Shown piece by piece: positions 22,209 through 61,434 of a stretch of DNA of 64,000 nt. A model generated the notes under the pieces. The model was not told the origin of the DNA. It made no database searches and saw only the letters and a program-made list of their open reading frames with translations. The position numbers and the translations under genes are program-made. The DNA lies in contig JADGRH010000001.1 of assembly GCA_017881075.1 (NCBI GenBank), positions 59,639 to 123,638 of the forward strand, written 5' to 3'. Each line of letters opens with the position of its first letter. The stretch's first letter is position 1. The stretch is from Minisyncoccota bacterium. GTDB lineage: Bacteria; Patescibacteriota; Minisyncoccia; Phycocordibacterales; CAJBRS01.

Positions 22209-22211
22209 AAG

Positions 22212-31629: not shown

Positions 31630-31630
31630 T

Positions 31631-37215: not shown

Positions 37216-37235
37216 ATAAACATTAATTTTAATAT

Positions 37236-38897: not shown

Positions 38898-38900
38898 ATA

Positions 38901-40813: not shown

Positions 40814-40854
40814 CAGAGCTATAATGTTCAAAATTATTAATAAAAATTTATAAA

Positions 40855-42115: not shown

Positions 42116-42143
42116 CCCTCTATTTTATCACTTCCTAGCGAAC

Positions 42144-42683
42144 ATGCTAGAATTATGTATGGCTAAGATAACTATTGATGGGTTGGCAGGAACGGGGAAG
42201 AGCACGGCCACCAAGATGTTGGCCGAAAAGCTCGGCTACCAGTTCTCCTCAAGTGGTGATTTTATAAGAATGCAGGCAAAAGAGCTTGGTCTTTCTATTC
42301 ACCAATTCGATGATTTGGCCAGAACCGACTCTAAGTATGATATTACACGGGACAAAATGGTAGAAAAATACGGAAAGATCCACAATGATTTTATTGTCGA
42401 GGGTAGATTAGGTTGGAAATTTATTCCCGATGCCCATAAAGTAAAATTGCACTGCGATTTTGACGCAAGGGTGCGAAGGGCGGCTGACCGAGATGGTCTT
42501 GATTTTGAAACGGCTAAACGACACACTATTCAGCGGGAAGAAGCCATTGCGGACAGATTTTTTCGTTATTATGGAATTGAAAATGCCATCGACGATTCTC
42601 ATTTTGATTTGATTATAGATACTACCAATACAAAAAAAGGTGAGGCAATGGAAATAATTTGCCGCCATTTCAACCTAAAATAA
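42144..42683 (+). CDS. Cytidylate kinase-like P-loop kinase
   Basis: 'ITIDGLAGTGKSTATKMLAEKLGY' P-loop, with LID/NMP regions consistent with a short CMP-kinase-like protein. Confidence 0.5.
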   Translation: MLELCMAKITIDGLAGTGKSTATKMLAEKLGYQFSSSGDFIRMQAKELGLSIHQFDDLARTDSKYDITRDKMVEKYGKIHNDFIVEGRLGWKFIPDAHKVKLHCDFDARVRRAADRDGLDFETAKRHTIQREEAIADRFFRYYGIENAIDDSHFDLIIDTTNTKKGEAMEIICRHFNLK

Positions 42684-42796
42684 GTCAAAAATCTACAACC
42701 GGGTTATCCCCACCCCTCCTATTGACTACCCCCCCCTTATGCTATTCTTATAGGTGAGGGAAGTAACTCTAAACTTTATTAATAAATATTTTTTCT

Positions 42797-44692: not shown

Positions 44693-44705
44693 AAAGGATT
44701 CTATT

Positions 44706-44737
44706 AAAAAAACGCCGCCCAAAAGGCGGCGTTTTTT
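44706..44737. terminator. Bidirectional Rho-independent terminator
   Basis: aaaaaaa-cgccgcc-caaaa-ggcggcg-tttttt between convergent genes. Confidence 0.8.
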
Positions 44738-44743
44738 GTTAAT

Positions 44744-45145
44744 TTATTCCTTTCTCCTCAACTCAATCTCTTCTTTTGATAAATCAAATTTAACCACAAA
44801 ATGTTCAAAGAATCCTTTTTGACCAAGTATTCCATACGGCACAACACTTCCAGAAACGTTAGGCATAAATCCTGCATCAATCTCAAAAGGCCAGCCACCA
44901 ACCATGATACTAATTCGGTGTAAGTAATAAATAGAAACTTTTCCTCCAACTCCAAAAACTTCCTCCGGTCTGCCACTTGTCAAATCAATACCAAGCAGGT
45001 CTCCAATATTAGAGTGAAAAATACATATATCAGAACCGGAATCTATCAAAACATCGTACGGAACAGTTCTATCATTATAGGTAAGTTCAATAGGAATAAC
45101 TGGCCGCAATATTTGCGACCCATAGTTCTTGTATCGAAATTTCAT
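44744..45145 (-). CDS. Retropepsin-like (clan AA) aspartic protease
   Basis: 'VLIDSGSDICIFHSNIGDLLGI' D-S/T-G active-site pattern in a ~130-aa protein. Start placed at the internal Met, which overlaps the upstream gene's stop (ATGA). Confidence 0.55.
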   Translation of the reverse strand: MKFRYKNYGSQILRPVIPIELTYNDRTVPYDVLIDSGSDICIFHSNIGDLLGIDLTSGRPEEVFGVGGKVSIYYLHRISIMVGGWPFEIDAGFMPNVSGSVVPYGILGQKGFFEHFVVKFDLSKEEIELRRKE

Positions 45146-45339
45146 AGTGCACCAATGTATGTCGCCAGCGTTTCCGGCATGCGAGTAAGAATAGGTTTTT
45201 TGTAACCATTCTTTTGAGCCTTCTCCCAAGCTTCTTTTGCGGTCTTGCCACTTCCCACAACCGTGATCTCATCTTTCTTAAGTGCCACCCACAAGCCTTT
45301 ATATTTTTTATATATTTTAGTCCAATCTATAGCTGTCAT
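45142..45339 (-). CDS. Small hypothetical protein encoded upstream of, and translationally coupled to, the retropepsin-like gene
   Basis: 65-aa ORF 'MTAIDWTKIYKKYKGLWVALKKDEITVVGSGKTAKEAWEKAQKNGYKKPILTRMPE...'. Its stop TGA overlaps the ATG of the next gene. Confidence 0.45.
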   Translation of the reverse strand: MTAIDWTKIYKKYKGLWVALKKDEITVVGSGKTAKEAWEKAQKNGYKKPILTRMPETLATYIGAL

Positions 45340-45590
45340 AGTTACGTTATATCAAAATTAAGGATAATTCTCAAGACGTTCGACCGAGACACTATGATAA
45401 AGATCACAGATGAATTTTCGCCAAAGGAAAGATAAAGAAAAAAGCTTCTACTGAGACTTATTTTACACACAGGATTATCCACAGCCAATTTTTTCGGTCT
45501 TCAAAAAAGCCATTTTCTCTGGTATGATTATATAGTTAGTTAAAAGTAAGGGTCGATTTAATTACAAACTTAAATACAAACCCAATCTAT

Positions 45591-45968
45591 ATGGCAAAGA
45601 ATTTAGCTGTTATTTTTGGAGTAGTATTTGTTCTTGTCGGCCTTTTGGGCTTTATTGGCGGAGTTGGTATTGTCGGACCAAATGGCACTTTTGCCACCGA
45701 CACTGTCCACGATCTTATTCACTTCCTTTCTGGTGTGATTATGTTGATTGTGGCCTTTTCCGCTCCTCAGTCTTCTGCTGGAGTTCTGAAGGTCTTCGGT
45801 ATCATCTATCTCTTAGTCACCCTGCTCGGATTTCTCACTCCCGGTCTGCTTGGTAGCCTAATGCTTTCTAACGGAACTGATAATTGGCTACATTTAGTGC
45901 TAGGCGTCGTTATCACTTGGGCTGGCTTTAGTGGCGCAAACAACACCAGCGCTCCGATGACAGCGTAA
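45591..45968 (+). CDS. Hypothetical small membrane protein (3-4 TM)
   Basis: Hydrophobic profile. No catalytic motif. Confidence 0.45.
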   Translation: MAKNLAVIFGVVFVLVGLLGFIGGVGIVGPNGTFATDTVHDLIHFLSGVIMLIVAFSAPQSSAGVLKVFGIIYLLVTLLGFLTPGLLGSLMLSNGTDNWLHLVLGVVITWAGFSGANNTSAPMTA

Positions 45969-45999
45969 GCAATTTTTCTCACTAGAAATTTTTTAGAGA

Positions 46000-46037
46000 C
46001 CCACCCCGTCGCTTCAAAACGACGGGGTGGGTTTTTA
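46000..46037 (+). terminator. Rho-independent terminator
   Basis: acccaccccgtcg-cttcaaaac-gacggggtgggt followed by ttttt. Confidence 0.75.
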
Positions 46038-46245
46038 TGATATTATAAAATGGATGGAAATAAAAAACATTGATCATTACGTTTGTGCCGGAGAGTGCCG
46101 GAGCGAATCGGAAAAGCCCGCCACCTGTGTTGTTAAAAGCTGCTCAAAATATGGAGAACCTCTGGTTTCCTGCACTTGTGCCGATGGTCGTCACAAGGAA
46201 GTTTGGGATAAGGAACTGCCTTCGCCGACGAGGGATGGGTTTTGA
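46027..46245 (+). CDS. Small Cys-rich hypothetical protein (7 Cys in 72 aa)
   Basis: ORF separated from the CAP-domain gene by 3 nt. Its start is embedded in the terminator T-run, so its reality is uncertain. Confidence 0.25.
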   Translation: MGFYDIIKWMEIKNIDHYVCAGECRSESEKPATCVVKSCSKYGEPLVSCTCADGRHKEVWDKELPSPTRDGF

Positions 46246-46248
46246 AAT

Positions 46249-47106
46249 ATGAACTTTCTCCGACCATTAGGCTTCCTATCCTTAATCGTTCTCGTGGGGT
46301 TTTTTCTCCAACACTACCATTTCAACTTTACCGATTTCAAAAATACTACCAGCGCTCTTGAACAGAAAGTTCAGCAAAAAGTAGAAGAGAATCTGCCTCC
46401 ACCGCTCCGCGGCGGCTCCTCTATCACTCCTCCCCAAAGCGGAACGATCAGCCGCTCCGGCATCATCGCTACCACTAACAAGGAAAGGGCCAAAAATGGG
46501 GGCTTCTCCGCGCTCACAGAAAATGCCAAACTTGATGCTGCTGCGGCTGCCAAGGTAACAGACATGTTCGCCAATCAATATTTTGAACACACTTCTCCGA
46601 GTGGTAAGGGGCCAGCGGACCTGGCGAATGCACAGGGCTACTCCTACATTCTCATCGGCGAGAATTTGGCACTCGGCAATTTTACCGACAATCAGGATTT
46701 ACTGACCGCTTGGATGAATAGCCCGGGACATCGGGCCAACATTTTGAATAATCGTTTTATTGAAATGGGAGCGGCGGCCACAATGGGAATGTATGAGGGA
46801 AGAAAAGTATGGTTGGCAGTTCAGGAGTTTGGTTTGCCCCTGTCTTCTTGCCCATCAATTAATTCTAATCTTGAAGCAAGGATCCAAATAATGAAGAACG
46901 ATCTTGATATTAAGGTGGCCGCCCTTCAAGCAAAGAAAAAGGATATTGACAATACCTATCCAAAATCCGGCGATACTTATAATCAAAAGGCGGCAGAATA
47001 CAACCAAATGATAGCTGATTACAACGCTGAAGTGAAAGAAACCAGAACTGATATTGATACTTACAACAAAGGAGTCAAGGCTTTTAATAATTGTGCTCAA
47101 ACCTAA
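46249..47106 (+). CDS. CAP/SCP/PR-1 domain secreted protein with C-terminal coiled coil
   Basis: 'YFEHTSPSGKGPADLA...GENLALG...NSPGHRANIL' CAP-domain signatures. N-terminal signal anchor. Confidence 0.7.
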   Translation: MNFLRPLGFLSLIVLVGFFLQHYHFNFTDFKNTTSALEQKVQQKVEENLPPPLRGGSSITPPQSGTISRSGIIATTNKERAKNGGFSALTENAKLDAAAAAKVTDMFANQYFEHTSPSGKGPADLANAQGYSYILIGENLALGNFTDNQDLLTAWMNSPGHRANILNNRFIEMGAAATMGMYEGRKVWLAVQEFGLPLSSCPSINSNLEARIQIMKNDLDIKVAALQAKKKDIDNTYPKSGDTYNQKAAEYNQMIADYNAEVKETRTDIDTYNKGVKAFNNCAQT

Positions 47107-47113
47107 GATCTAA

Positions 47114-48280
47114 ATGCTAAATTTTTTTCACAGCTTTCATGGTAATGATCTATTAGATGTTATTCTGGTAGCCCTTTTTATCTATGTTGTTTTTATTTTT
47201 ATCAAACAGACTCGCTCTTACTTCATTTTCAATACCTTTCTGCTTCTTTTTGTCATTACCTATTTGTCGCGAACACTGGACCTTGCCCTAAGTCGTAAAC
47301 TATTTGAACCGTTAGTGGCTTTTTTCGCCATCATTTTTGTAGTGGTCTTTCAGCGTGAGATCCGTCGTTTTTTTAAATGGTTTGTTATCTCCCGTAATCG
47401 ACTGGGACGAAAAACCGAAACCATGATTACAACTCGCATTACCGACGCCATTGTGGAAGCGGTGGCTATAATGGCCAAGAAGAGAACAGGGGCTCTGATT
47501 ATTCTCTCCGGCGAATATCCTTTAGATGGCGTGGTAGAAGGAGGATTTTCTCTTGGTGGAGAAGTTTCCACCCCGCTTCTTTTAAGTATCTTTGACAGTC
47601 ATACTCCGGGTCACGACGGAGCGGTGTTGATTGATAATAAACGGGTCAAGAGTTTTGGTTTACATTTGCCTCTCACTGAAGAGTTCCGCGGCTCGCCAAC
47701 CCTAATGGGAACACGTCATCGGGCAGCTCTCGGGCTTTCAGAAAGAACGGACGCCATGATTATTGTGGTCTCGGAAGAGAGGGGAGCTATCTCTATCGCT
47801 CAAAATGGGGCACTACGAACAGTCCCCGATAGTGATAGTTTGGCGACCATCATCCGTGATTTCATTAAGGAAAATCCGCAAGAGACGCATGATTTCTGGT
47901 ATTACATTGTGGTTAAAAATTTTTTTATCAAGATTCTTTCTATTGTTATTGCTCTGGCTCTTTGGATTCTTCTTGTATTTCAGGGCAATATTTCTAATCG
48001 CGAGATCACGGTGCCGATTGAATTCAGTCATATTCCGGCGAGCGTCATTGTAGAGAAAGTGATTCCACCTGAAGTGAAGATTAATGTTTCAGGCAACAGC
48101 CGTGACGTTGCCGCTCTAAAAGAACAAGATGTAAGGGTTATTATTGATCTCTCTAAAGCGGTGGAGGGTAGCGAGCAATTTGATGTCACCAAAAAGGAAG
48201 TCGTTCTGCCGTCCTATCTTAATCTAGTCAGCATCAGCCCAACCAGAACCTTGGTCGGGCTACATAAAGTCGGACCGTGA
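47114..48280 (+). CDS. cdaA: Diadenylate cyclase CdaA fused to a YbbR-like (CdaR) domain
   Basis: 3 N-terminal TM helices. DAC domain with 'TPGHDGAVLI' and 'GTRHRAALGLSERTDAMIIVVSEERG'. Then an additional TM and ~130 aa 'REITVPIEFSHIPASVIVEKVIPPEVKINVSGNSRDVAAL...' resembling YbbR repeats. Confidence 0.75.
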   Translation: MLNFFHSFHGNDLLDVILVALFIYVVFIFIKQTRSYFIFNTFLLLFVITYLSRTLDLALSRKLFEPLVAFFAIIFVVVFQREIRRFFKWFVISRNRLGRKTETMITTRITDAIVEAVAIMAKKRTGALIILSGEYPLDGVVEGGFSLGGEVSTPLLLSIFDSHTPGHDGAVLIDNKRVKSFGLHLPLTEEFRGSPTLMGTRHRAALGLSERTDAMIIVVSEERGAISIAQNGALRTVPDSDSLATIIRDFIKENPQETHDFWYYIVVKNFFIKILSIVIALALWILLVFQGNISNREITVPIEFSHIPASVIVEKVIPPEVKINVSGNSRDVAALKEQDVRVIIDLSKAVEGSEQFDVTKKEVVLPSYLNLVSISPTRTLVGLHKVGP

Positions 48281-48411
48281 GCCTGGTGGTTTTGAGTTCG
48301 AGTCCTTAACCCCCAACAAATAAATAAAAGATAATTTTAAGATAATGTTATTGACAAAATGGCTAAATAGGCGTAGTTATATATTATTATTTGCTTAATA
48401 ATTATATTGCC

Positions 48412-49557
48412 ATGAAAAAACTTCAATTTTCAGCCATATTTTTCAGCCTAATTTTGACAGTGATGTTCTTTCCACATTTCGGATTGGCTGACACCGTTGG
48501 TCTCTCTGTGAGTAGTATGAGCAATAACAGGGTTCAGATTAACGTAAATGGCGACAGTAATTATTCTGTAGATCTTTTTTACCAAGTATCTCCGTCATCG
48601 CCCACCATCCCTGTTGGTTCTATTGGCACCACCGACTCAAGTGGTTACTTTTCTGCCATTCTAAATAGTGGCAGCTACAATCTCTCATCGGGTTATAGAG
48701 TATATGTGGAAGTGAATGGCCAGCAATCAAACACCGTGATCTGGCCGTCTTCTGACAATAACAATAACGACCAAATCACTTTCAGTCAGAACAATATAGA
48801 ATTGGATTATAACCAAAGCATCACCGTAAATATTTATGGTGGCTCCGGCTCGTATTATATTTCTTCCAATTCAAATTCTGATTTTGTCAACGCCTCAATC
48901 AGCGGTAATCAAATTTATCTCTCAACTGACAATAATAATCAGTATAACGGTGACTCGGCTACCATCCGTGTCTGTTCTCGTAATGGTAATTCAAGTTGTG
49001 GTTATCTGTATGTAACCCAGAGTGGCAATAATAATAATGAACAGGTTAGTTTCAGCCAAAATAATATTAATCTCAATATCGGCCAACAAGTTCAAACCAC
49101 TATCTACGGTTCCGGCAGTTACTACATTTCTAACAATTCTAATTCAAATGTGGTCAACGCTTATCTAAACGGCAATACTCTGAATATTACAGGAAGTCAA
49201 AGTGGTTCAGCCACTATCAGAGTTTGTTCCAATAATAGTAATTCAAGTTGTGGCAATCTTCATGTCAGTGTCAGTGGCAACTATTATAATAATAACAATG
49301 GCTACTACAATAATCCTCCCATCGTCTACGTTCAGAATCCAACCACTCCTATGTATACTCAGTCTATTTATGGCGGATTAGGCACGCCGTCCGCCGGAGT
49401 ATTCTTAAGCCATGTGCCTTCAACCGGCATCAGTTTCAATCTGAAAATGGCTCTCTTTTTCATCGGCCTCTTTATGTGGAGTGCTTTCGGTGCTTTTATG
49501 ATTCTTTCCTACCAAGAAAGCAAGAAATTACTGGCTGACCTAGAAAAGAGAAATTAA
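48412..49557 (+). CDS. Secreted surface protein with repeated Ig-like modules and a C-terminal VPSTG + TM + charged-tail sorting-signal-like module
   Basis: Signal peptide from the ATG at 48412. Repeated '...ATIRVCS.N.NSSCG.L.V..SG' modules. C-terminus 'HVPSTGISFNLKMALFFIGLFMWSAFGAFMILSYQESKK...'. Confidence 0.6.
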   Translation: MKKLQFSAIFFSLILTVMFFPHFGLADTVGLSVSSMSNNRVQINVNGDSNYSVDLFYQVSPSSPTIPVGSIGTTDSSGYFSAILNSGSYNLSSGYRVYVEVNGQQSNTVIWPSSDNNNNDQITFSQNNIELDYNQSITVNIYGGSGSYYISSNSNSDFVNASISGNQIYLSTDNNNQYNGDSATIRVCSRNGNSSCGYLYVTQSGNNNNEQVSFSQNNINLNIGQQVQTTIYGSGSYYISNNSNSNVVNAYLNGNTLNITGSQSGSATIRVCSNNSNSSCGNLHVSVSGNYYNNNNGYYNNPPIVYVQNPTTPMYTQSIYGGLGTPSAGVFLSHVPSTGISFNLKMALFFIGLFMWSAFGAFMILSYQESKKLLADLEKRN

Positions 49558-51065: not shown

Positions 51066-51719
51066 ATGAAACAGTCAGTAAAGTGGTATAAACACAAAGA
51101 GACCCTTTTCATTCTGCTCTTCGTTGGTATATTTTTCGTCTCCTTTGTCATTTTGTATTTTCTGGGACTAATTCCTAATGAGTTGATTGTTGATACCAGT
51201 AAGCCGAGCGCTCTGGACCAATTGAATGAACACTCCATTGAAAGTGTTGTTGGGGGCAATAACTCGAATAATTATTCAGTCACCATTCTCCAAGAAGAGC
51301 CCATCAAGATTGAGGCGGCCACAATCGGTTTAAGTTTCAGTATTGAAAACCCGACCACTGATAATTATCAGGCTCTGGATTCGGCACTGGTGAGGGGGGC
51401 GGTCCATTATCCCGGCTCCGGTTTTCCCGGTGCAGGCAACATGTTTATTTTTGGTCACAGCACCGGCTTCAAAGTAGTGAACAACAAGGCTTATCAAGTT
51501 TTCAATAATATTCACAATCTTCAGCAAGGTGATGAAATAAAAATTTATTCCAAGGACAAAGTTTATTCATATCGTGTCAGTTCGGTGAAGTTGGAAAAAG
51601 ACAGTAATGCTTATGTCAACTTCTCCACCAATATCAACAAATTAACTCTCTCTACCTGCAACAGTTTCGGCGCGAAAGAAGATAGGTATGTTGTGGAGGC
51701 AGACTACGTTAGCAGCTAA
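51066..51719 (+). CDS. Sortase-family transpeptidase
   Basis: N-terminal TM anchor. Catalytic His in 'IFGHSTG', Cys in 'LTLSTC' (TLXTC) and Arg in 'EDRYVVEADY'. Followed by a GC-rich hairpin ggggccggcgc-gga-gcgccggcccc. Confidence 0.75.
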   Translation: MKQSVKWYKHKETLFILLFVGIFFVSFVILYFLGLIPNELIVDTSKPSALDQLNEHSIESVVGGNNSNNYSVTILQEEPIKIEAATIGLSFSIENPTTDNYQALDSALVRGAVHYPGSGFPGAGNMFIFGHSTGFKVVNNKAYQVFNNIHNLQQGDEIKIYSKDKVYSYRVSSVKLEKDSNAYVNFSTNINKLTLSTCNSFGAKEDRYVVEADYVSS

Positions 51720-51853: not shown

Positions 51854-53821
51854 ATGCAACAGAACGAACCAACGCAACAGATTTCACATGCTCGCCTTCA
51901 AAAACGCTACCCCACTATGAGGATCGGTGAAGATGAGGATGAGTTCGCAGTAGATCTTGACACCACGAACACTGAGAAAAAAGGGAGACCAGTTAAGGAC
52001 CTGGATCGGGGTGAAAAACAACTTCATTTCGATCATCGGCTTCTCCGATATAATAAACCTGAATTGGCTGCAATGGCCGAACCGCTTTTGCCGGGAGATG
52101 TGAGAGAGACAAGCAATCTCTCCCTTATTTCGGGAAAGACTGGCCATGAAAGCGACGCCAGTCTTCACCGGGTTGTAAAACCCGAAATGGTCGGAGACGG
52201 AGAGAGAGGACGTGCTCTGGCTGAGAGACGACAAAAGAGACGGTTTCCCCGTGAAAATTTCGGCTTAGGAAAGCTCCAAGACGATCACATCAGAATCTAC
52301 GGCAATGCCATTGACGCCTTCGGCTCTCTAGGTCTGGTTAAAGGAAAATTCGAGGAAGGTTTCATTATCGACCTCGACCAGGGTGAAATCGAAGGAAACG
52401 TCGGCGGAAAGAGTGGCTTTAATCACAACACTCACAATATCAGTAATGTCGAGGGCGATGTCACCGGAACAACAGGAAATCCCAGCGGTTTCATAACAAA
52501 GGTAAATGTCACGGATTGGGGTAACTGGGAACAGATACTTCTTCTCTTTTTCGGGTACGATCCGCTTTTGTGGGATGGAACACCTCTTCCCTCTGATCTG
52601 GCTCCTAAGCCAGGAAGCGCCGTTGATCTTTATCGAATCGCCCGAAAAGCATACGAGACTGGCGGTGGAGGTTACACCCCTGAAATCAAGGCACTCTACG
52701 ATCTCTATCGGGTTGAGCTCGCAAGGGTTTGGAAAATCGCCGAAGAGATGCAACTGCCGTGTTATCTCGATCTGGTAACGACCGCCGACTGGAATGCCGG
52801 CGACTGGGTCTATCGAGATTTTTTCGAAAAGTGCCAAGCCAGGTACGAACAAGCGAAAAAAGACGGGGTAGAAAATCCCGTGGAAACACCATTCGTCCTT
52901 GTAAGACACGAAAGTGGCAATCTTCGCACCACGATCGCCTTGTTCTCGGAACTCGACGGTCGTTCTGATGCGGAAAAACAGTGGGAACTGCCGGATGAAC
53001 CAGTCATTCGGAACATCAGCGCGACAGTGCATTGGAGATCAGAGTGGATGCCTCAAGAAGAGATCGAGTGGCGAACGCGAGCTAATGAAAAAATCTCGCG
53101 TAAGAATATTCGTCGTCAGTTGCGTGGCAAAGAACCTTTGCCTCTGTGGCCTGTTGGATCTCTGATTCCAGAATGCGTGCGGCATGGATGGGACGGGGAG
53201 AGGAAGCTCACCCTAAGGCCCATCATAGAGTTTCCTAAACAGCCCGACAGGGAGGTCTGGAACTTTAAGCCGAGATCGGAAAGTGACGAACATTTCCACG
53301 CTCGAATGTTTCGGAAATATAGGATCTGTCCGCGACACCCACCCTTCTGGATTGAGGATTTCTATGTCTCGGTACCAGTCTATGCAGGTACAGGGAAAGT
53401 GAAATACCTCATTTGTCCGAAGATGTTGAAGATGCCGCCCGGTCCGATGCTACACGTTTCTCATGTGCGTGAATTGCTTCATAGGCCAAGAGCTGAAGCT
53501 CTGGCTTATGTGGATCGTCTTCAACCCAAAAAGCCGCAACTCAGCGCTAAAGCGCTTCAGTACATTAAAGGAAAGATGAAACCTTTGCCAAAGGAAGAGC
53601 GAAGAAGTAAAGCCAAACAGAAAACCAAGACTATCCCTCGGATTTCGGAACAACCTCCGAATTTGCCGAAGGAAGTTAATCTTCCTGCTTCAGCTACAAC
53701 TTCAACTTTAGTAGCACCGGCGCCGAATTCTTCCAAAACTCCGCCGGAACCCGAGACCCCAAAGACGGGGGTAATACGACGGCTTGCGGGTGCCGCCGCC
53801 TCCTTCTACATTAGGCAATAG
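51854..53821 (+). CDS. Large (655 aa) orphan protein, first gene of a compositionally distinct island
   Basis: Long ORF with coding-like periodicity and codon usage distinct from its neighbours (more GCC/CGC/GAG/AAG). No recognisable motif. Basic, Lys-rich C-terminal region. Confidence 0.5.
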   Translation: MQQNEPTQQISHARLQKRYPTMRIGEDEDEFAVDLDTTNTEKKGRPVKDLDRGEKQLHFDHRLLRYNKPELAAMAEPLLPGDVRETSNLSLISGKTGHESDASLHRVVKPEMVGDGERGRALAERRQKRRFPRENFGLGKLQDDHIRIYGNAIDAFGSLGLVKGKFEEGFIIDLDQGEIEGNVGGKSGFNHNTHNISNVEGDVTGTTGNPSGFITKVNVTDWGNWEQILLLFFGYDPLLWDGTPLPSDLAPKPGSAVDLYRIARKAYETGGGGYTPEIKALYDLYRVELARVWKIAEEMQLPCYLDLVTTADWNAGDWVYRDFFEKCQARYEQAKKDGVENPVETPFVLVRHESGNLRTTIALFSELDGRSDAEKQWELPDEPVIRNISATVHWRSEWMPQEEIEWRTRANEKISRKNIRRQLRGKEPLPLWPVGSLIPECVRHGWDGERKLTLRPIIEFPKQPDREVWNFKPRSESDEHFHARMFRKYRICPRHPPFWIEDFYVSVPVYAGTGKVKYLICPKMLKMPPGPMLHVSHVRELLHRPRAEALAYVDRLQPKKPQLSAKALQYIKGKMKPLPKEERRSKAKQKTKTIPRISEQPPNLPKEVNLPASATTSTLVAPAPNSSKTPPEPETPKTGVIRRLAGAAASFYIRQ

Positions 53822-53840
53822 TAGGGAAATAACGATAGTC

Positions 53841-53870
53841 GGCGTCGCGTCTTGCGCGACGCCTTTTTAA
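53841..53870 (+). terminator. Rho-independent terminator
   Basis: ggcgtcgcg-tctt-gcgcgacgcc + ttttt. Confidence 0.75.
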
Positions 53871-53960
53871 TTTTCCATTGACACCAGCTACTTATCATGA
53901 TAGATATCTGACTAGATATTGTAGGAAAAAACAACGAACAAAAACAAAAAGAAAGGTATT

Positions 53961-55424
53961 ATGATTAGTTTTTTGATAACACCGTGCAGGAAAATTTGGC
54001 CGAAAAAGCTGAAACCATGGCTTACGGCCACCATAGCCGTCGATATCGGCACCGACAATCTCGACATTTGTCTATGTGATTCAGACGGAAAGCCCGATGT
54101 CGACAAGATTCTTCAGCTGCCCACCGTTGCGCTCAAAATGGCTGATGGAGAAACTCTTCTCGCCATTGGGGATGAAGCTCGAGCGGTGATAGATCGTGTC
54201 TCTAATGATGCGGAAGAAAAAAGGCGTGTGGAGGTGATCCAGCCGGTCAGAAACGGCAAGATCGTCAATCGTCCAGTGGCGACAGCTCTTCTTAAGATGG
54301 GCCTCCGAGAGTTTTGGAAGCAGTATCCTCAAATCACGGATCAAACGCAAATCCGCCTGATTGTCACAGTGCCAATCAAGTTATCTCATGTCCAGGAACG
54401 AGAGGTAGTCAATGTGGCGCAAAACGCGACCACGAGGAATGACGATAGCAGCACCACTTCCGTCTCGGTTATCGATCAGCCGATGGCAGCAGCCATTGGT
54501 TCGGGAGTTTATAACCCGAAGAAAGTTATTGGGTCACTGATTTGTGACATCGGAGGGGGTACTCACCAGGTGATGGCCGTTTCCGGAGTAGCAGGTAACA
54601 TGGCCTCCAGGCTTTTGGAAGAAGGAGGCAACGCTTATACGGAGGTCATACAGGAGTATTGCCGCACCAAGCACAAGATCGATCCTGACTTCAACGAAGC
54701 CGAAAGGGTAAAGTGCGAGATCGGAGCAGCCGAGGTGGTTCCTGAAAAAGACGAGAACAACAAGATGACAGATGGTAATCGAACTACCAGAATCTATGGC
54801 AAACATCTCGAGACGCACTTGGGTGATTCGGTTGAATTGACCAGCGAGGAGTTGGTACCGGTCTTTGCTTCAATCCTTGGTCGTTTCGTGAGACTGATCA
54901 AGGAAGTGGGAGATGTCGCGCCCAAAGGAGTGGTTGCTGACATGGCAAAGCCAAACTCGGGTCTTTATCTTGCAGGCGGAGGCTCTCTGCTTCGCGGTCT
55001 GCCAGAATACCTGAAGAAAGAAACTGGTTACAATGTCTATGACATCCCGAATCCTCAAAGAGTTGTTGTGATTGGGGCGGCCATGGCACTGGGGAGTCCC
55101 ATCCTCTCCTTCAACTTTGTCCGGGAGCCTATCATTGAAGATCCAAAACGAAAGGGTTTGCCGAAAGCTGTCAAACGACCGTCGTTCAGCAACTTGAGCG
55201 GTCAAAGTCCGACCTTCAGATGCTCAACTCTTCCATCGGAGGATGGAGAATCGGATCCGGTCACCCAATACTCGAAGGGCACAACTTCTGATGGTAAGAC
55301 CTTCGAGGAGAAGGCCTTGCTCCTGGGTGTAGGCGTGAAGTATCTCGACGATCTCACACCCGCTGAGAAGAGACGACTCGCGGCGCAGAAGAAAATGCCG
55401 GTAATGGAGACGCAGACAGCCTAA
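53961..55424 (+). CDS. Divergent MreB-like actin-family ATPase with ~90-aa C-terminal extension
   Basis: 'IAVDIGTDNL' (phosphate 1), 'IDQPMAAAIGSG', 'GSLICDIGGGTHQVMAVS' (phosphate 2), 'GGNAYTEVIQEY...ERVKCEIGAA', 'GLYLAGGGSLLRGLPEYLKKETG' (adenosine motif). These align in the MreB order. Confidence 0.7.
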   Translation: MISFLITPCRKIWPKKLKPWLTATIAVDIGTDNLDICLCDSDGKPDVDKILQLPTVALKMADGETLLAIGDEARAVIDRVSNDAEEKRRVEVIQPVRNGKIVNRPVATALLKMGLREFWKQYPQITDQTQIRLIVTVPIKLSHVQEREVVNVAQNATTRNDDSSTTSVSVIDQPMAAAIGSGVYNPKKVIGSLICDIGGGTHQVMAVSGVAGNMASRLLEEGGNAYTEVIQEYCRTKHKIDPDFNEAERVKCEIGAAEVVPEKDENNKMTDGNRTTRIYGKHLETHLGDSVELTSEELVPVFASILGRFVRLIKEVGDVAPKGVVADMAKPNSGLYLAGGGSLLRGLPEYLKKETGYNVYDIPNPQRVVVIGAAMALGSPILSFNFVREPIIEDPKRKGLPKAVKRPSFSNLSGQSPTFRCSTLPSEDGESDPVTQYSKGTTSDGKTFEEKALLLGVGVKYLDDLTPAEKRRLAAQKKMPVMETQTA

Positions 55425-55442
55425 GGGTAGTAATTAGTCAGC

Positions 55443-55472
55443 GCCGCGGAAACCTAGTTTCCGCGGCTTTTT
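55443..55472 (+). terminator. Rho-independent terminator
   Basis: gccgcggaaacc-tag-tttccgcggc + ttttt. Confidence 0.8.
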
Positions 55473-55596
55473 ATATAAAGTAGCTTCTACGGTAAAATTT
55501 AATTGACGTATAAGATTTAGTGTGATAAGGTCAAAAAGAATTTTCATTTCGTCGAATTCTCGACGAAACAGCTCTTAAACAAAGAAAGGAACATAA

Positions 55597-56319
55597 ATGG
55601 CTAAACCAGCCGTAAAGAAAGTCTCAGTGCAGAGGCGCGCGGTTCAATTGGTCAGTCAATTCATTTGCGCTGGCCGCAAGTTTCATTGGCGCAGGGTCGG
55701 AATTACTCTTCTCATGCTTGTAGTTTTTCCAATCTTGATGTGCACTCTTTGGCATCACGGAGGAAAAATCGCTTCTCTCGGGTGGCGTACAACCACTCAA
55801 GGATTGCAATATTTTGGTAGTCACATGCAGATGGCAACGAAGTTGGCAAAAGTGCAGACAGCGCTCAACCTTACCGACTACGATCTTCGAGTGACACAGC
55901 AAAAGTTTGCCAACAAAACCGAAGAAGCGGCGGAAAATGCAGACGAGGCAAAGGCCGCGCACAAATCGGAAGCGGAGTTGCGTGAGTCCCTAGCTGCGAA
56001 GAAGGAATCTTTGGACGCCGAGAAAAAAGCCACCACTAGACTTGAGGGAGAGGTCACACAGGCAAACCTTAATGGCCAGAAGCGGGTGGAGAAAGCTCAA
56101 GCGGAAGCAGCTTCAAAGATCGCTGATGCCAATGGTGTAGCAGCGGCTGCCGTTAATCGCGCCAAAGTAGCCGAAGCTGCGGTAAACAAACTTCCAGACG
56201 AAAGTTTGAGCAAAGCCAAAGCCGAAGCGGAGCAAAAAAACGCCAGATTGGAAGCGGAGCTTAGACAATCGAGAGCGCGACACCTCGCAGACGTCAAAGA
56301 ATTACTGAAGGGCTATTAG
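55597..56319 (+). CDS. Membrane-anchored coiled-coil protein (island gene)
   Basis: One TM helix ('ITLLMLVVFPILMCTLW'), then a ~170-aa Ala/Glu/Lys-rich coiled coil. Followed by the terminator at 56334-56360. Confidence 0.45.
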   Translation: MAKPAVKKVSVQRRAVQLVSQFICAGRKFHWRRVGITLLMLVVFPILMCTLWHHGGKIASLGWRTTTQGLQYFGSHMQMATKLAKVQTALNLTDYDLRVTQQKFANKTEEAAENADEAKAAHKSEAELRESLAAKKESLDAEKKATTRLEGEVTQANLNGQKRVEKAQAEAASKIADANGVAAAAVNRAKVAEAAVNKLPDESLSKAKAEAEQKNARLEAELRQSRARHLADVKELLKGY

Positions 56320-56382
56320 TGCTCAATCAGGACGCAGTGCGGAACACCGATTCCCGCACTGCTTTTTATTTTAGGGCTGTTT

Positions 56383-56411
56383 CAAATTGCCCTTGACTTT
56401 ATTTCAGGGAT
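56383..56411 (+). promoter_or_regulatory. Candidate sigma70 promoter GCCC-TTGACT-N17-TAATAA (extended -10 TGa)
   Basis: ttgact at 56383-56388. tgataataa at 56403-56411. Confidence 0.5.
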
Positions 56412-56512
56412 GTGATAATAAGAGAAATGAATCGTCAATAGTTAATAAATCTTGAACAAGTATTCAGGGTTTATGTTGACAAACAAACAACGCAGACAAC
56501 CCGGGAGGGTTT

Positions 56513-57097
56513 ATGAATATATCGAAAACAAACAAGCCATTCGCTCTCATTCTCGCGCTCATCGCGGCCGTTTCCTTCGTCGCCACCCCCGTGGCGTTCG
56601 CTGGCGACAGGAACGAAGCGAAGCCGAAGCAATCGGCGATACCTACTAAAGCAGCCGCCAAGAAACTACCAAACGAATTCACTGGCATTCCTGAAGCCAC
56701 GCCAGTGGATCAAATGATCGCAATTGATACGACACCGACCGGAAACGATCCGAACAAAAAGAAACTCCAACAGCTAGCTACAGCTGCCGACCCCACGGCG
56801 TCAGCAACTCCGGACCCTACGGTGGAAGCCAAAGCTGGGATCGTCGCCGAGATTCGCAGGATGGCGAAAGCCAAGATTGACGAGATCACAGCCGAAAAAG
56901 ATGATGTTTCGAGCAAGTACAACGAACTGGTCAAAGGCTACAACAATCTGCTCACGCAACTAAACACTGCGAATGGCGATAAGGCTAAGTTGCAAGCCAA
57001 TTACAACGTCTTGGCGGCAGCGTTGGATGGAGCCGACGACATCAAAACGACGCTCAAGCCGAAAGAAAACCCGGCACCGACGGTCGTTAAGAAATAA
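56513..57097 (+). CDS. Secreted coiled-coil protein (island gene)
   Basis: Signal peptide 'ALILALIAAVSFVATPVAFA', then a predicted helical/coiled-coil C-terminal half. Terminator at 57116-57152. Confidence 0.45.
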   Translation: MNISKTNKPFALILALIAAVSFVATPVAFAGDRNEAKPKQSAIPTKAAAKKLPNEFTGIPEATPVDQMIAIDTTPTGNDPNKKKLQQLATAADPTASATPDPTVEAKAGIVAEIRRMAKAKIDEITAEKDDVSSKYNELVKGYNNLLTQLNTANGDKAKLQANYNVLAAALDGADDIKTTLKPKENPAPTVVKK

Positions 57098-57169
57098 GAC
57101 ACGATCAATTTCGATCAGCGAGCGCAGGGAAGTCCTTTGCGCTCGCTATTTTATTTAGAGACGAAGCCC

Positions 57170-57198
57170 TTGACTTTCTACTACTAGTATGATAATAT
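57170..57198 (+). promoter_or_regulatory. Candidate sigma70 promoter GCCC-TTGACT-N17-TAATAT (same architecture as 56383)
   Basis: ttgact at 57170-57175. tgataatat at 57190-57198. Confidence 0.5.
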
Positions 57199-57256
57199 AC
57201 AGGTAAATCAGGTTCTAGACACTATGTTTAGGGCCGCAACACGGAGAAGTATACAG

Positions 57257-58057
57257 ATGAAAAAACAGATCTTTGCAACACTGATCATGGCCCTAGTGGC
57301 TGGATCGATGATCAATAACGTCTCAGCCCAGACTTCAGCATCAGTGGCCGCTGACGCTGACGTTGTGGCACGCGCGGAAAAATTCAAGGCAAACAGGGTG
57401 CATATCGCAACTCTGGAGCAGGAAAATGCTCGGCTCACAGCAAACGCCGAAGTCTACAAAGAAGCTTTGGGAACAGAGCCCGTTGTGACTTCCTCGCCTG
57501 CGGCAAGCACAACCGCTTCACCAAGCGCGACGACAGACACCAAAGCGGAGAGCGCGACGAAGGACGCCACCGAAGCCGAGATCAAGAGATTGGTCGAGGA
57601 CAAACGGCGCGAAATCGCGGCAAGGAAAAATCTTCCTGGCCCGACAGCGAACAACACCTCTGCGGCACCGGCGAGCACGCCCGCAGACCCAATGGATCGT
57701 GAAGGCTACACCAAGACCTTGGTGGGTAGCTACATCCAGAAGGTGGAAGACCCGCGTTCTAAGCCCGTCGAAATCTTGGCCCGCAAGATTACCCTGGTTG
57801 GAGAAACCGAGGGAAAGATGCGCGAGCTTTGTTTCTGGACTGATGGGCACCACAACATTACCACGGGGTATGTGAGTGGTGGGGTGAAGGCGCATTTGAA
57901 TCGTCCGGATCATCAAACCTGGAAAAGGGGAGAGATCCGCGACGGACAGACAGGCAACATTCTTGTCGTCTATTACGTCGATTCGCCGGAAGGGAAGGTG
58001 GTCACAGCCTCCCGCCGGGAGTACCATCAAAAGCCGTCAAAGAATCAGCGTCGATAG
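57257..58057 (+). CDS. Secreted protein with coiled-coil N-terminal part, Ala/Thr/Ser-rich linker and a C-terminal globular domain (island gene)
   Basis: Signal peptide from the internal Met (MKKQIFATLIMALVAGS). C-terminal region 'CFWTDGHHNITTGYVSGGVKAHLNRPDHQTWKRGEI' has no match I recognise. Terminator at 58080-58107. Confidence 0.45.
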   Translation: MKKQIFATLIMALVAGSMINNVSAQTSASVAADADVVARAEKFKANRVHIATLEQENARLTANAEVYKEALGTEPVVTSSPAASTTASPSATTDTKAESATKDATEAEIKRLVEDKRREIAARKNLPGPTANNTSAAPASTPADPMDREGYTKTLVGSYIQKVEDPRSKPVEILARKITLVGETEGKMRELCFWTDGHHNITTGYVSGGVKAHLNRPDHQTWKRGEIRDGQTGNILVVYYVDSPEGKVVTASRREYHQKPSKNQRR

Positions 58058-58211: not shown

Positions 58212-59663
58212 ATGAACAAAATTTTAAAAACAATTAAATACAGCTTAGGAATTATGGTAATCCTTGCCTTTGCTTCTATTTCTATGGGGCAAGTTGTTTA
58301 TGCGGATACCCCATCTGATTATGGATCAGGAAGCTACTACGACTACACTCCTGATTATGGATCTGGAAGTTATTACAACTATACCCCTGATTATGGATCC
58401 GGCAGTTACTATAATTATACTCCTGACTATGGCTCAGGCAGTTACTACGATTCTTCTCCGACCTACACTGATAATACTTCCGGCAATGGTTACGGCACCG
58501 ACTATGGTTATTACTACGGAGACAACTGTGGCTCTAGTTGCGACACTACTAATTATGGCACTGACCAGGGTTATTACTATGGTAATAACTGTGATACTAG
58601 TTGCGACACCGCTAGCAATGATTATGGTTACGGTGGCTCTGGTGGTGGCTACGGAGGCTGTTCTTACGGTTGTGGTAGTAGTAACTCCGGAAGTTATGGC
58701 ATGCCATCCTACAATTCCTACGGCACTCCCTCTTACAATCCACCATCTTACAATTACAACCCCACCCCTACCTATTACAATCCTCCATCTTCTAACGGCT
58801 CCGGCGCTATCGTAGTGAATAACAACAATAACAATACAAATAACAACACCAACAACAATAATGTGGTAGTGAATATTCCTCCGGTCAATACTGTCACTCC
58901 TCCGCCACCCCCACCTCCTCCTGTCTACAACAACCTTACTGCTTACTGTGTTGGCACCCCTTCTAATCCTCAAATTGGAGATAATGTTACATGGAGAGTC
59001 TATGCCTCGGGGGGTAATGGTAACTACAATTATTCTTGGAGAGGAGATGTCTCTGGTAATAACACAACTGAAAACGCCAACTATTATAATAGTGGTACAG
59101 AGAGTGCTTCAGTCAGGGTAACAACCTCAAATGGCGATAGCTTTACTACCGACCAATGTGAAGTAAACGTGCAACCACGAGGATCAACCATTTCTAATGT
59201 TACGGTCTATACTCCACCAACAGGCACTCCTAGCGCAGGTGTATTCCTTAGCCAAATTCCTGCTACTGGCATCAGCCCTACGATGAAATTGGCTCTCTTC
59301 ATTCTCGGACTCTTTCTCTGGAGCGCCTTCGGAGCCTACATGATTCTGGAACGACGCAAGATGGGTACATTGGCTACTGCTGGTATCAATGCTTCCGACA
59401 TGGAAGATGAGGCCGACGAAGTGGTCACTGAACCGACGGAATCAATTCCAGCTGACGATCTTGAAAGTAATCTTTCTTTCCGAGCGCGCGAGAACAATGT
59501 TCTCATCTCTCGAGATGGTCTTGCCGTCATAATGAATCGAGCCAATGGCAATCAGGGCGAGGCTGAAAACATCCTTTCACAACTCGTGAGCAAGGTTTCC
59601 AGAAATGACGGAGATTACGCTACACTGAACGGAGAAAAAATTAATAAATTACTTAATAGTTAA
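58212..59663 (+). CDS. Secreted Tyr/Gly/Ser-rich repeat protein with a C-terminal IPATG + conserved TM module followed by a ~105-aa cytoplasmic tail
   Basis: Signal peptide. 4 tandem 36-nt repeats encoding YGSGSYY(D/N)YTPD. Cys-rich and Asn-rich stretches and a Pro8 run. 'TPSAGVFLSQIPATGISPTMKLALFILGLFLWSAFGAYMILERRK' is shared with the 48412 gene. Confidence 0.6.
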   Translation: MNKILKTIKYSLGIMVILAFASISMGQVVYADTPSDYGSGSYYDYTPDYGSGSYYNYTPDYGSGSYYNYTPDYGSGSYYDSSPTYTDNTSGNGYGTDYGYYYGDNCGSSCDTTNYGTDQGYYYGNNCDTSCDTASNDYGYGGSGGGYGGCSYGCGSSNSGSYGMPSYNSYGTPSYNPPSYNYNPTPTYYNPPSSNGSGAIVVNNNNNNTNNNTNNNNVVVNIPPVNTVTPPPPPPPPVYNNLTAYCVGTPSNPQIGDNVTWRVYASGGNGNYNYSWRGDVSGNNTTENANYYNSGTESASVRVTTSNGDSFTTDQCEVNVQPRGSTISNVTVYTPPTGTPSAGVFLSQIPATGISPTMKLALFILGLFLWSAFGAYMILERRKMGTLATAGINASDMEDEADEVVTEPTESIPADDLESNLSFRARENNVLISRDGLAVIMNRANGNQGEAENILSQLVSKVSRNDGDYATLNGEKINKLLNS

Positions 59664-59666
59664 CAA

Positions 59667-59713
59667 AAAAGAAAACAGCGGCCGCCTAAAGGCGGCCGCT
59701 GTTTTCTTTTTGG
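59667..59713. terminator. Bidirectional Rho-independent terminator overlapping the thrS stop
   Basis: aaaagaaaacagcggccgcc-taaa-ggcggccgctgttttcttttt. Confidence 0.8.
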
Positions 59714-61434
59714 AATTTTTCGATCAATTTTGCTATTTTAATTGTCTCCGCATTTCCTTTGTCACGGCTCTCTAGTGTTACGGTCTGCGACCCAACCTCT
59801 TTGTCACCAATGACGGCCATGTAGGGGACTTTCTCTACCTTTCCTTCTCGTATCTTCTTGCCGAGACTTTCATTAGAATCATCCAACTCCGCTCTGATGC
59901 CGGCGCTTTTCAATTGCTGAAATACTTCGCCGGCATACTCTTGATGTGTCTCACCAATAGAGAGGATCTTTATCTGAACAGGGGAGAGCCAGAAGGGGAA
60001 TGCACCGGCGTAATGTTCGATCAAAAAACCGATGAATCTCTCATGAGTACCAAGAGGGGCGCGGTGAATGCAAAGAGGAGTTTCCTTTTCTCCTTTAGCA
60101 TTAACATAATTTAAATCGAATCGTTTTGGTACCGAAAAATCTACTTGATTAGTAGCCAGAGTAAACTCCCGGCCAATAGCACTCCAAACTTCCACGTCAA
60201 TCTTAGGGCCATAGAAAGCCGCTTCGTTGGCTATTTCTACATAAGGAATTTTTGATTCCACCAAAACATCTCGAACCATTTTTTCCGTTTCAATCCAGAG
60301 CAGAGGCTCATCAACATATTTCTCGCCCAGTCTGGCCGGATCATGAGTGGAAAAACGCATCTGATATTTTTCTATACCAAAAATCTTAAAATATTTAAGA
60401 TACATTTCATTTACTTGTCGAAACTCTTCCGCAAATTGATCCTTACTGCAATAAATATGGGCATCATTCATTTGCATAGAACGCGTCCTCATGATGCCGA
60501 AAAGTTCTCCCGATTTTTCCTGCCTGTAAACAGTGCCATATTCAGCCAGGCGCAGAGGTAGGTCTTTATAACTCGGATGCATCGCCGCAAATATTTTATG
60601 ATGATGCGGACAATTCATGGCCTTTAGATAATACTTTCCGCCCTCATATTCCATTGGTGGAAACATGCTCTCCTGGTAATAGGGAAGATGGCCGCTTTTT
60701 ATATACATTGATTCCTTGGCGATGTGAGGTGTGCGAACTCTTTGGTATCCTGCTTCAAACTCTGTTTCTTTGGCAAGCTTTTCCAGCTCCTCAATAATAA
60801 TGGCTCCGTTCGGAAGCCAGAGCGGCAGCCCTGGCCCGGTATCTTCATCAAAAACAAAAATTTTTAATTCACGGCCGAGTTTTCGATGATCTCGTTTTTC
60901 GGCCTCAATCTGTTGTTTCTCATAATTTTCCAATTCTTCTCTTGTTTCAAACGCTAACCCATAAATACGAGTGAGCATTTTGTTTTTCTCGTCTCCGCGC
61001 CAATAGGCACCGGCGATGTGGGAGAGCTTAAATGCATCAATATTGACATCCTGCATGTTGTCAACGTGTCCGCCGCGACAGAGGTCGGTGAATTTTCCAG
61101 CAGTGTAAAGAGTGATCGGCTCCTTTTTGGCGACAATCTCATCAATCAATTCCAGTTTGTAGGGATTGTCGGTGAATAGGGCCCTCGACTCGCTCGGGCT
61201 CACTTCTTTATGCTCAAACCCTTTCCACCCATTATAAATTTTCTTCATCTTCTTCTCGATCTCCTTCAGGTCTTTATCCGAAATAGGGGACACGAAATCA
61301 AAGTCGTAATAGAACCCATTCTCAATAGCTGGCCCGATAGTATTTAAAGCATCAGGATGCAATTCCAAAACTGCCGCCGCAAGCAAATGTGCCAGCGAAT
61401 GTCGCATTTTAGCCAGTTTGTCGTTTGAATCCAT
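59686..61434 (-). CDS. thrS: Threonine--tRNA ligase (short form lacking the N-terminal TGS domain)
   Basis: Editing-domain 'HSLAHLLAAAV', class II motifs ('FRQVNEMY...', 'HRAPLGTHERFIGFLIEHYAGAFPFWLSP') and a C-terminal anticodon-binding domain. 582 aa. Confidence 0.85.
   Translation of the reverse strand: MDSNDKLAKMRHSLAHLLAAAVLELHPDALNTIGPAIENGFYYDFDFVSPISDKDLKEIEKKMKKIYNGWKGFEHKEVSPSESRALFTDNPYKLELIDEIVAKKEPITLYTAGKFTDLCRGGHVDNMQDVNIDAFKLSHIAGAYWRGDEKNKMLTRIYGLAFETREELENYEKQQIEAEKRDHRKLGRELKIFVFDEDTGPGLPLWLPNGAIIIEELEKLAKETEFEAGYQRVRTPHIAKESMYIKSGHLPYYQESMFPPMEYEGGKYYLKAMNCPHHHKIFAAMHPSYKDLPLRLAEYGTVYRQEKSGELFGIMRTRSMQMNDAHIYCSKDQFAEEFRQVNEMYLKYFKIFGIEKYQMRFSTHDPARLGEKYVDEPLLWIETEKMVRDVLVESKIPYVEIANEAAFYGPKIDVEVWSAIGREFTLATNQVDFSVPKRFDLNYVNAKGEKETPLCIHRAPLGTHERFIGFLIEHYAGAFPFWLSPVQIKILSIGETHQEYAGEVFQQLKSAGIRAELDDSNESLGKKIREGKVEKVPYMAVIGDKEVGSQTVTLESRDKGNAETIKIAKLIEKFQKENSGRL

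Follow-up and report, generated by a model that had tools for sequence, protein, structure and literature searches.

A divergent MreB-family actin gene in a five-gene cassette at a sortase locus of a CPR bacterium

An actin-like gene that lies in compositionally distinct bacterial DNA raises the question of whether its product is a segregation filament brought in by a plasmid or phage, a displaced shape-determining protein of the host, or something else. We addressed this question for the open reading frame (ORF) at positions 53961–55424 (plus strand) of a 64-kb window, i.e., the whole stretch of DNA that was analyzed, from contig JADGRH010000001.1. The host is a Nomurabacteria-like member of the Paceibacteria within the Candidate Phyla Radiation (CPR), whose threonyl-tRNA synthetase (ThrRS) is 72% identical to that encoded by MFUU01000014. 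Few bacterial proteins are normally as conserved as MreB, which is linked to wall synthesis. The ORF is intact, and its product is an MreB-family protein of extreme divergence, not a ParM, Alp or MamK protein. The gene comes second in a cassette of five genes in the same orientation (positions 51854–58057). The new element is this cassette of CPR bacteria, in which a catalytically altered MreB paralogue is the central component; two genomes are known to carry it so far.

Family assignment, architecture and active site of the MreB-like protein

The 487-residue product matches the Pfam family MreB_Mbl (PF06723) with 154.4 bits (E-value 4e-45, cutoff 27), residues 23–377 being aligned with profile positions 2–319 of 327, and the Caulobacter crescentus MreB structure 4cze matches it with an E-value of 1e-27. 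The canonical MreBs among the matches listed in the first search are 28–32% identical to it. Among the NCBIfam hidden Markov models (HMMs), those for MreB score 158.8 and 129.6 bits, whereas MamK scores 40.7 and FtsA 24 bits, and Hsc66 is also far below MreB. The curated cutoffs for canonical MreB are not reached (158.8 vs. 293 bits for NF010539, 129.6 vs. 365.75 bits for TIGR00904), and neither is the MamK cutoff of 400 bits. The AlphaFold2 (AF2) model has a predicted local distance difference test (pLDDT) score of 80 with a confident core that shows the MreB-type subdomains IA, IB, IIA and IIB. The top 25 Foldseek matches in PDB are all MreBs (E-values 2e-30 to 4e-24, target-normalized TM-scores 0.81–0.92), followed by BeeR, MamK, Hsp70 and actin; the MamK structures rank under all MreBs, and no ParM or Alp structure is found among the top 50 fold matches. 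Canonical MreB, Mbl and MreBH (4CZE–4CZM and Thermotoga maritima 1JCE) thus constitute the best match in sequence, HMM and fold (TM-score ~0.9). Given the MreB HMM and fold scores together with the scores below the curated NCBIfam cutoffs, the protein belongs to the MreB family but is an outlier in it, in agreement with the initial annotation, which had described the product as an MreB-like actin that is divergent, carries insertions and is extended at its C-terminus.

An exhaustive HMMER (phmmer) scan of 1.84 billion representative proteins returned a single protein at E<1e-30, a 509-residue protein with 32% identity and 138 bits on Pfam MreB_Mbl, hereafter P0122. The remaining hits are MreB-family proteins, mostly of canonical length, whose identity within the matched regions is at most 36%. 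In a comparison of 268 MreB-family sequences, the window protein (P0001) and P0122 alone share all seven of seven derived states, including three Glu-to-Gln changes and the replacement of TPPEL by AP(K/N)G(V/L), and they are sisters in 99 of 100 neighbor-joining bootstraps. Both the derived states and the tree place the window protein outside the cluster of canonical MreBs; the clustering with vertically inherited MreBs that would speak for a housekeeping gene is therefore not observed.

The protein consists of a hydrophobic and basic N-terminal extension (residues 1–22), an actin fold (residues ~22–390) and a disordered tail (residues ~391–487). The N-terminal 22 residues, ISFLITPCRKIWPKKLKPWL, lie where Gram-negative MreBs carry an amphipathic helix, and an alignment shows that their PKK..W element is common to P0122. 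All the motif strings quoted in the initial annotation occur in the translation, namely AVDIGTDN, QPMAAAIGSG, DIGGGTHQV, ERVKCEIGAA, LAGGGSLLRGLPEYLKKETG and NATTRNDDSSTTSVSV, and the five actin-fold motifs follow one another as in canonical MreB. In pairwise alignments, the Ser/Thr-rich segment NATTRNDDSSTTS is confirmed as a 7-residue insertion relative to both canonical MreB and P0122. Other small insertions are located at about residues 35–50, 81–86, 125–128, 263–270 and 329–330, which gives about six such differences from canonical MreB in addition to the C-terminal extension of ~97 residues. The latter (residues 391–487, encoded at 55131–55421, plus strand) has a pLDDT below 50 over most of its length in the AF2 model, with two short helices at 448–454 and 467–475, and it is covered by no database homologue in the exhaustive scan. 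Since the tail is rich in Lys, Ser, Thr and Pro and has a net charge of just +3, its earlier description as basic and Ser/Pro-rich is roughly right. The tail of P0122 is of similar length and aligns weakly with it.

The gene is flanked by its own candidate expression signals. Upstream, a terminator-like hairpin with a T-run (53841–53863, plus strand; 10-bp stem with eight GC pairs, found by the consensus scan) follows the preceding gene, and a promoter-like site, TTGACA-17 nt-TGaTAGATA with an extended -10 element, was recognized by eye at 53878–53906 (plus strand), with TTGACA at 53878–53883. A candidate ribosome-binding site, GAAAGG, lies at about 53950. Downstream, an 11-bp, GC-rich terminator-like hairpin (GCCGCGGAAAC/GTTTCCGCGGC) with a T-run begins 19 nt past the stop codon (55443–55467, plus strand) and matches the terminator consensus. 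Thus, of the promoter and terminator originally ascribed to the gene, the terminator is borne out by a consensus match, whereas the promoter was not flagged by the consensus scan.

To examine the active site, residues were mapped onto C. crescentus MreB (CcMreB) with a chain-index offset of +7 that was verified on the 4cze alignment. The Gly/Asp nucleotide-binding positions are all kept (D28, G30, T31, D196, G198, G200, G339–341 and G372), and the glycines of the phosphate-1, phosphate-2 and adenosine motifs are invariant with respect to canonical MreB. The catalytic motif E...T-X-[D/E], which is conserved in 95.8% of MreBs, uses E140 and T167 to place the attacking water, while E169 is proposed to activate T167 (PMC9597168, PMC4051119). 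In the window protein, T167 is retained as T201, whereas E140 and E169 both correspond to Gln (Q173 and Q203, with H202 as the middle residue of the T-X-[D/E] element); P0122 has the same pattern, Q202...T230-S-Q232. In Spiroplasma MreB3, loss of the motif accompanies slow release of Pi (PMC9597168, PMC4051119), and in actin Q137 occupies the position of CcMreB E140 (PMC9597168). For the polymerization interfaces, the 4cze alignment gives hints at the level of single residues: a hydrophobic residue is kept at the inter-protofilament position V118 (V144), and the intra-protofilament residue S283 corresponds to A326. We infer from these residues that nucleotide binding and polymerization are probably retained, while hydrolysis may be slowed or altered.

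The five-gene cassette and its counterpart in a second genome

The first gene of the cassette, orf655 (51854–53821, plus strand), encodes a 655-residue cytoplasmic orphan protein that has no transmembrane segment in the sequence analysis, a net charge of +10 and a Lys/Pro-rich C-terminal tail. It has no match in Pfam, NCBIfam, PHROG, PADLOC or PDB. Its single-sequence AF2 model is unusable (pLDDT 34). The protein encoded at the same position in the second genome (o570, see below) is 36% identical to it over 490 residues (E-value 5e-73), and orf655, a gene on which the initial annotation is silent, is the sole partner of the MreB-like gene with clear conservation. Comparison of an orf655/o570 profile with PDB sequences yielded nothing at E-values up to 10. 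Word-indexed searches with orf655 alone and with this profile returned just the query, and the latter search missed o570 although it is in the collection, so that these negatives are weak. As an observation on the method itself, a word-indexed search fails to find a 36%-identical protein even when that protein is part of the query profile, and orphan verdicts from such searches alone are weak.

The remaining three genes follow the MreB-like gene in the same orientation. The third, orf240 (55597–56319, plus strand), is predicted to encode a bitopic membrane protein of 240 residues, in which a cytoplasmic N-terminal tail of 33 strongly basic residues is followed by one transmembrane segment (residues 34–52) and an Ala/Lys/Glu-rich coiled-coil region. 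The fourth, orf194 (56513–57097, plus strand), encodes 194 residues, in which a coiled coil comes after a signal peptide, and a terminator-like hairpin with a 13-bp stem was found by the scan downstream of it (57117–57147, plus strand). The fifth (57224–58057, plus strand) encodes 277 residues comprising a signal peptide, an Ala/Thr-rich coiled coil and a C-terminal domain of ~120 residues; the ATG at 57257 (266 residues) is more likely to be its start than the first ATG at 57224, as GGAGAAG lies 9 nt upstream of the former and the product would begin with MKKQ and carry a signal peptide. Relaxed Pfam scans of these three small proteins revealed sub-threshold coiled-coil noise and no MreC, RodZ, PilN, PilO or GspM even at E-values up to 5. 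All five proteins of the cassette are singletons at 90% clustering. The initial annotation had proposed the adjacent coiled-coil proteins as partners of the filament. They do belong to the same cassette; however, with N-terminal transmembrane or signal sequences and a mostly extracytoplasmic predicted location, they are unlike adaptors of the ParR/AlfB type.

The second copy is found in another Paceibacteria genome (GCA_038215155.1, contig JBBQRF010000004.1, locus L082), which encodes P0122. The gene order there is CARDB protein (minus strand), sortase, 570-residue orphan, MreB-like protein of 509 residues, proteins of 290, 210 and 243 residues, repeat-rich surface protein, ThrRS (minus strand) and DnaE (minus strand), and it equals the window region 49554–63966 gene for gene. 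It was this synteny that brought out P0122, a relative that ordinary similarity ranking barely set apart from thousands of canonical MreBs. The level of conservation differs widely along the locus: identity between the two genomes is 81% for DnaE, 61% for the sortase, 56% for the CARDB protein, 43% for the surface protein (o487 in L082) and 29–32% for the MreB-like proteins, while no similarity is detectable for the three small cassette genes. The order of these three genes and their architecture of a transmembrane or signal sequence plus a coiled coil are kept in both genomes. For example, o290, the counterpart of orf240, has a basic loop, a transmembrane segment and a coiled coil, and o243 shares the architecture of the fifth gene product, whose counterpart it is. 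The fourth gene products, orf194 and o210, share the same weak DUF3450 match (E-value ~1e-3, below the Pfam cutoff) at equivalent residues. In both genomes, a promoter-like layout TTGAC(A/T)-17-TGnTAA and a hairpin terminator precede nearly every gene of the cassette, and a comparable promoter-like site is also found at the surface gene of the host in the flank. We also noted a 32-nt repeat (GCCCTTGACTTT...TGATAATA) at 56389–56420 and 57166–57197, i.e., a shared promoter module upstream of the fourth and fifth genes.

Searches for further copies were negative: scans of metagenomes and IMG/VR with two alignments (A1 and A2) gave no further cassette, the 28 metagenome hits being ordinary MreB-family genes with 26–30% identity and no other cassette gene nearby, and a scan of genome contigs with the MreB-like protein found nothing.

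Insertion site and genomic surroundings

The cassette is bordered by two genes of the host: on the left, a sortase gene (51066–51719, plus strand; Pfam Sortase, E-value 6e-20), and on the right, a gene for a repeat-rich surface protein in which a transmembrane segment comes after an IPATG-like sorting motif (58212–59663, plus strand). A scan of genome contigs with a ThrRS query identified two relatives without the cassette, L017 and L008, which keep the DnaE-ThrRS-surface-sortase-CARDB synteny (DnaE 64–67% identical) and in which the sortase gene is 110 and 101 bp, respectively, from the surface gene; the corresponding distance in the window is 6.5 kb. Because the sortase gene lies directly next to the surface gene in both relatives, the five-gene block is a real insertion between the sortase gene and its likely substrate gene. 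Composition agrees with the comparative synteny in confirming the island named in the initial annotation: the GC content of the cassette is ~0.50, compared with 0.40–0.44 in the flanks, and GC content at third codon positions (GC3) is 0.49–0.61, compared with 0.38–0.49 in host genes, with the same offset of +0.10–0.15 in L082. Both junctions recur in an independently made Logan assembly (SRR10489828). An assembly chimera was considered as well and is ruled out by this assembly across both junctions together with the same arrangement in the second genome. The cassette may have been acquired once, long ago, and then have evolved very fast, or it may have been replaced at this site more than once from a divergent pool of higher GC content; the persistent GC3 offset slightly favors the latter possibility.

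Several features of the surroundings were recorded in addition. The ThrRS gene (59686–61434, minus strand) encodes a protein that shares 72% identity with a Nomurabacteria ThrRS (L002) but just 54% with its positional counterpart in L082 (15784–17544); given 81% identity of the adjacent DnaE, it may have undergone xenologous replacement in one lineage. The surface proteins encoded at 48391–49557 and 58212–59663 of the window and at 14269–15732 of L082 carry a C-terminal motif PSAGVFLS(H/Q)(V/I)P(S/A)TGIS followed by a transmembrane segment, and this motif looks like a non-canonical sortase signal. In the protein encoded at 58212 and its L082 orthologue, ~110 conserved residues lie past the transmembrane segment, an uncommon arrangement among sortase substrates. 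Between the convergent surface-protein and thrS genes, a perfect 22-nt palindrome with flanking A/T runs (59666–59711) is probably a bidirectional terminator. Farther away, a giant ORF (22–9606, plus strand; at least 3194 residues) enters at the start of the window, and its GC content is raised through the second codon positions (GC2 0.55), not through GC3. Two IS200/Y1-transposase-like ORFs (9742–10428, minus strand, and 22188–22907, plus strand) are situated far from the cassette. A stretch of ~17–19 kb (~30700–49500) between gyrB and the CARDB/sortase genes encodes an extracytoplasmic function (ECF) sigma factor, a MacB-type ABC exporter, BacA, a CAP-domain protein and CdaA; it is missing from L082 (6078–6151), where gyrB is directly upstream.

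Alternative explanations and proposed function

The initial annotation had drawn an analogy with Alp- and ParM-type segregation, in which the gene would encode a type II partition or positioning filament from an integrated plasmid or phage, with the neighboring genes as adaptors. ParM, AlfA and Alp7A do share with the window protein the actin fold and a location on DNA that looks acquired, and this reading would account for a block that is compositionally distinct and inserted relative to L017 and L008, for a GC3 that is raised in both copies as in a foreign gene pool, and for the weak PHROG matches (phrog_22570 of unknown function, E-value 7e-15; phrog_691, "partition protein", E-value 9e-6). 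However, HMM scores and fold identify MreB rather than ParM, Alp or MamK. The cassette contains no small DNA-binding adaptor gene of the ParR, AlfB or Alp7R kind, the gene after the MreB-like one encoding the transmembrane coiled-coil protein, and its other downstream partners are exported; no iterons or tandem or centromere-like repeats occur in its intergenic regions; no integrase, replication or relaxase gene accompanies it; and neither att-type direct repeats nor an adjacent tRNA gene mark its borders. No close relative was found in 50,697 phage records, 72,556 plasmid records or IMG/VR, and tblastn against phages and plasmids retrieved just canonical MreBs with up to 30% identity on misfiled chromosomes, chromids and jumbo phages. 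Moreover, the cassette occupies the same chromosomal site in the second genome, among housekeeping genes and with host-type promoters. Lacking an integrase, replication gene, iterons, adaptor or plasmid or phage relative, the segregation reading is not supported, and we consider it very improbable. Only a little more credible, and still quite improbable, is the possibility that the ORF is the highly derived shape-determining MreB of the host, i.e., its elongasome scaffold moved away from mreCD. The family assignment, the retained nucleotide-binding motifs and V118 equivalent, and the lack of any other mreB in the 64-kb window, which is part of a 169-kb contig, would all fit, and the order of an actin gene followed by a bitopic coiled-coil gene superficially recalls mreB-mreC. 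Nevertheless, neither MreB-like copy adjoins mreCD or rodA, and no MreC, MreD, RodA or PBP2 domain was detected in the scanned ORFs across the window or the L082 locus, in contrast to the mreB-mreC-...-PBP2 context of the canonical match P0005. The cassette is missing at the same site in L017 and L008, and its two MreB-like proteins, at 29–32% identity compared with 81% for DnaE, have diverged far faster than canonical MreB. They have also lost the catalytic E...T-X-[D/E] motif, and the window protein scores below the NCBIfam MreB cutoffs. Canonical MreB, MreC and RodA are reported in most Patescibacteria metagenome-assembled genomes (75–95%; PMC8672522, PMC11809585).

Two further alternatives concern what, if anything, the cassette does. 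It could be decaying or functionless horizontally acquired DNA whose ORFs are remnants under little selection, a rather unlikely explanation in our view. All five proteins being singletons at 90% clustering, the absence of similarity between the genomes for three of the five, the foreign-like GC3 and the lost catalytic acids are what it would lead one to expect. Yet both genomes have kept the long ORFs intact although the divergence between them is saturating (487 and 509 residues for the MreB-like proteins, 655 and 570 residues for the orphan), the invariant Gly/Asp nucleotide-binding positions are kept, nearly every gene in both genomes has a promoter-like site, a ribosome-binding site and a terminator, and the architecture of transmembrane or signal sequence plus coiled coil is preserved position by position. 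It is also possible, although unlikely, that the genes form a host-interaction or conflict module, either an attachment or invasion apparatus or a phage-related system, in which the actin-like protein would power or place a machine at the surface and the module would evolve under diversifying selection. The location inside a sortase/CARDB/surface-protein cluster, the two exported components and the bitopic membrane protein are suggestive of this, as is the very fast divergence compared with housekeeping genes, which extends to the flanking surface proteins (43% identity). On the other hand, PADLOC defense models have no match in the cassette, nor does it match any known secretion, pilus or adhesin family, and the module so described would overlap with our preferred explanation, differing from it in the assigned biological role alone. 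Decidedly unlikely, finally, is a novel envelope-spanning cytoskeletal apparatus of ultra-small episymbiotic bacteria that positions or powers a host-attachment or motility structure and evolves rapidly under host-symbiont conflict; it would combine an MreB-derived filament with an actin-like Gln site, the cytoplasmic partner, the bitopic linker and exported coiled-coil fibers.

The explanation that we prefer, and to which we give an even chance of being correct, is that an accessory, lineage-specific, membrane-associated filament derived from MreB forms an envelope or surface scaffold together with orf655 and the exported coiled-coil proteins. The MreB-like protein would bind nucleotide and polymerize, with ATP hydrolysis that is slow or proceeds by an actin-like, Gln-based mechanism, so that the filaments could be long-lived. 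Its hydrophobic and basic N-terminal extension may attach the filament to the membrane, where it would work with the conserved 655-residue cytoplasmic partner, and the 33-residue basic cytoplasmic tail of orf240 could couple it to the two exported coiled-coil proteins. The assembly would thus constitute a lineage-specific scaffold of the envelope or cell surface within the sortase/surface-protein locus, and the module would be accessory and fast-evolving, neither a housekeeping elongasome MreB nor a DNA-segregation system.

Several known systems resemble parts of this proposed assembly. MreB-MreC/RodZ, PilM-PilN-PilO and crenactin-arcadins are modules of an actin-fold protein and its partners with a similar logic of gene order. 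As in these modules, a gene for a cytoplasmic actin-fold protein is followed in the cassette by one for a bitopic protein with a basic tail, a transmembrane segment and a coiled coil, and then by genes for exported coiled-coil proteins. However, no homology to MreC, RodZ, PilN, PilO or GspM was detected in the cassette, and arcadins, unlike its coiled-coil proteins, are cytoplasmic. Spiroplasma MreB3 (7E1C/7E1G) is, like the window protein, an MreB paralogue without E...T-X-[D/E], and has an accessory cytoskeletal rather than an elongasome role. It differs in carrying D/K/S where the window protein has Q/T/Q, in belonging to an unrelated lineage, in a fold match that is weaker than that of canonical MreB, and in having neither a C-terminal tail nor a comparable cassette. 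Eukaryotic actin (Q137/H161) has Gln at the water-positioning site equivalent to CcMreB E140 (PMC9597168). This likeness would be convergent at most, as actin is 10–14% identical in the fold matches, its H161 corresponds to Gln at the E169 position of the window protein, and H202 of the latter is the neighboring X residue.

A number of points weigh against the scaffold that we propose. The function proposed for the cassette is deduced from architecture and analogy. The hydrophobic membrane loop of CcMreB (F102/V103) is not conserved (Q124/I125), and membrane attachment through the N-terminal extension is a conjecture. Since only two cassettes are known and three of their five genes show no similarity, the term "conserved cassette" refers to homology of two genes and, beyond these, to likeness in position and architecture. 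About 11% of the sampled divergent MreB representatives also have Gln at the E140 position, which is therefore not unique. As the AF2 input alignment was made of canonical MreBs, the MreB-likeness of the model is partly built in. Finally, the raised GC3 together with 29–36% identity, while DnaE is 81% identical, could reflect two independent acquisitions from a mobile pool, which, if true, would weaken the interpretation as a chromosomal accessory module.

The locus teaches that the presence of an actin gene in an "island" of distinct composition does not necessarily point to a partition system from a plasmid or phage. It presents an MreB-family gene outside the context of wall synthesis, with both catalytic acids changed to Gln, terminal extensions and an orphan partner, in the CPR, a group whose cell biology is almost unknown. 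If functional, the cassette would be a compact natural case of a repurposed MreB, as in the motility of Spiroplasma, and an entry point to the surface organization of ultra-small symbionts.

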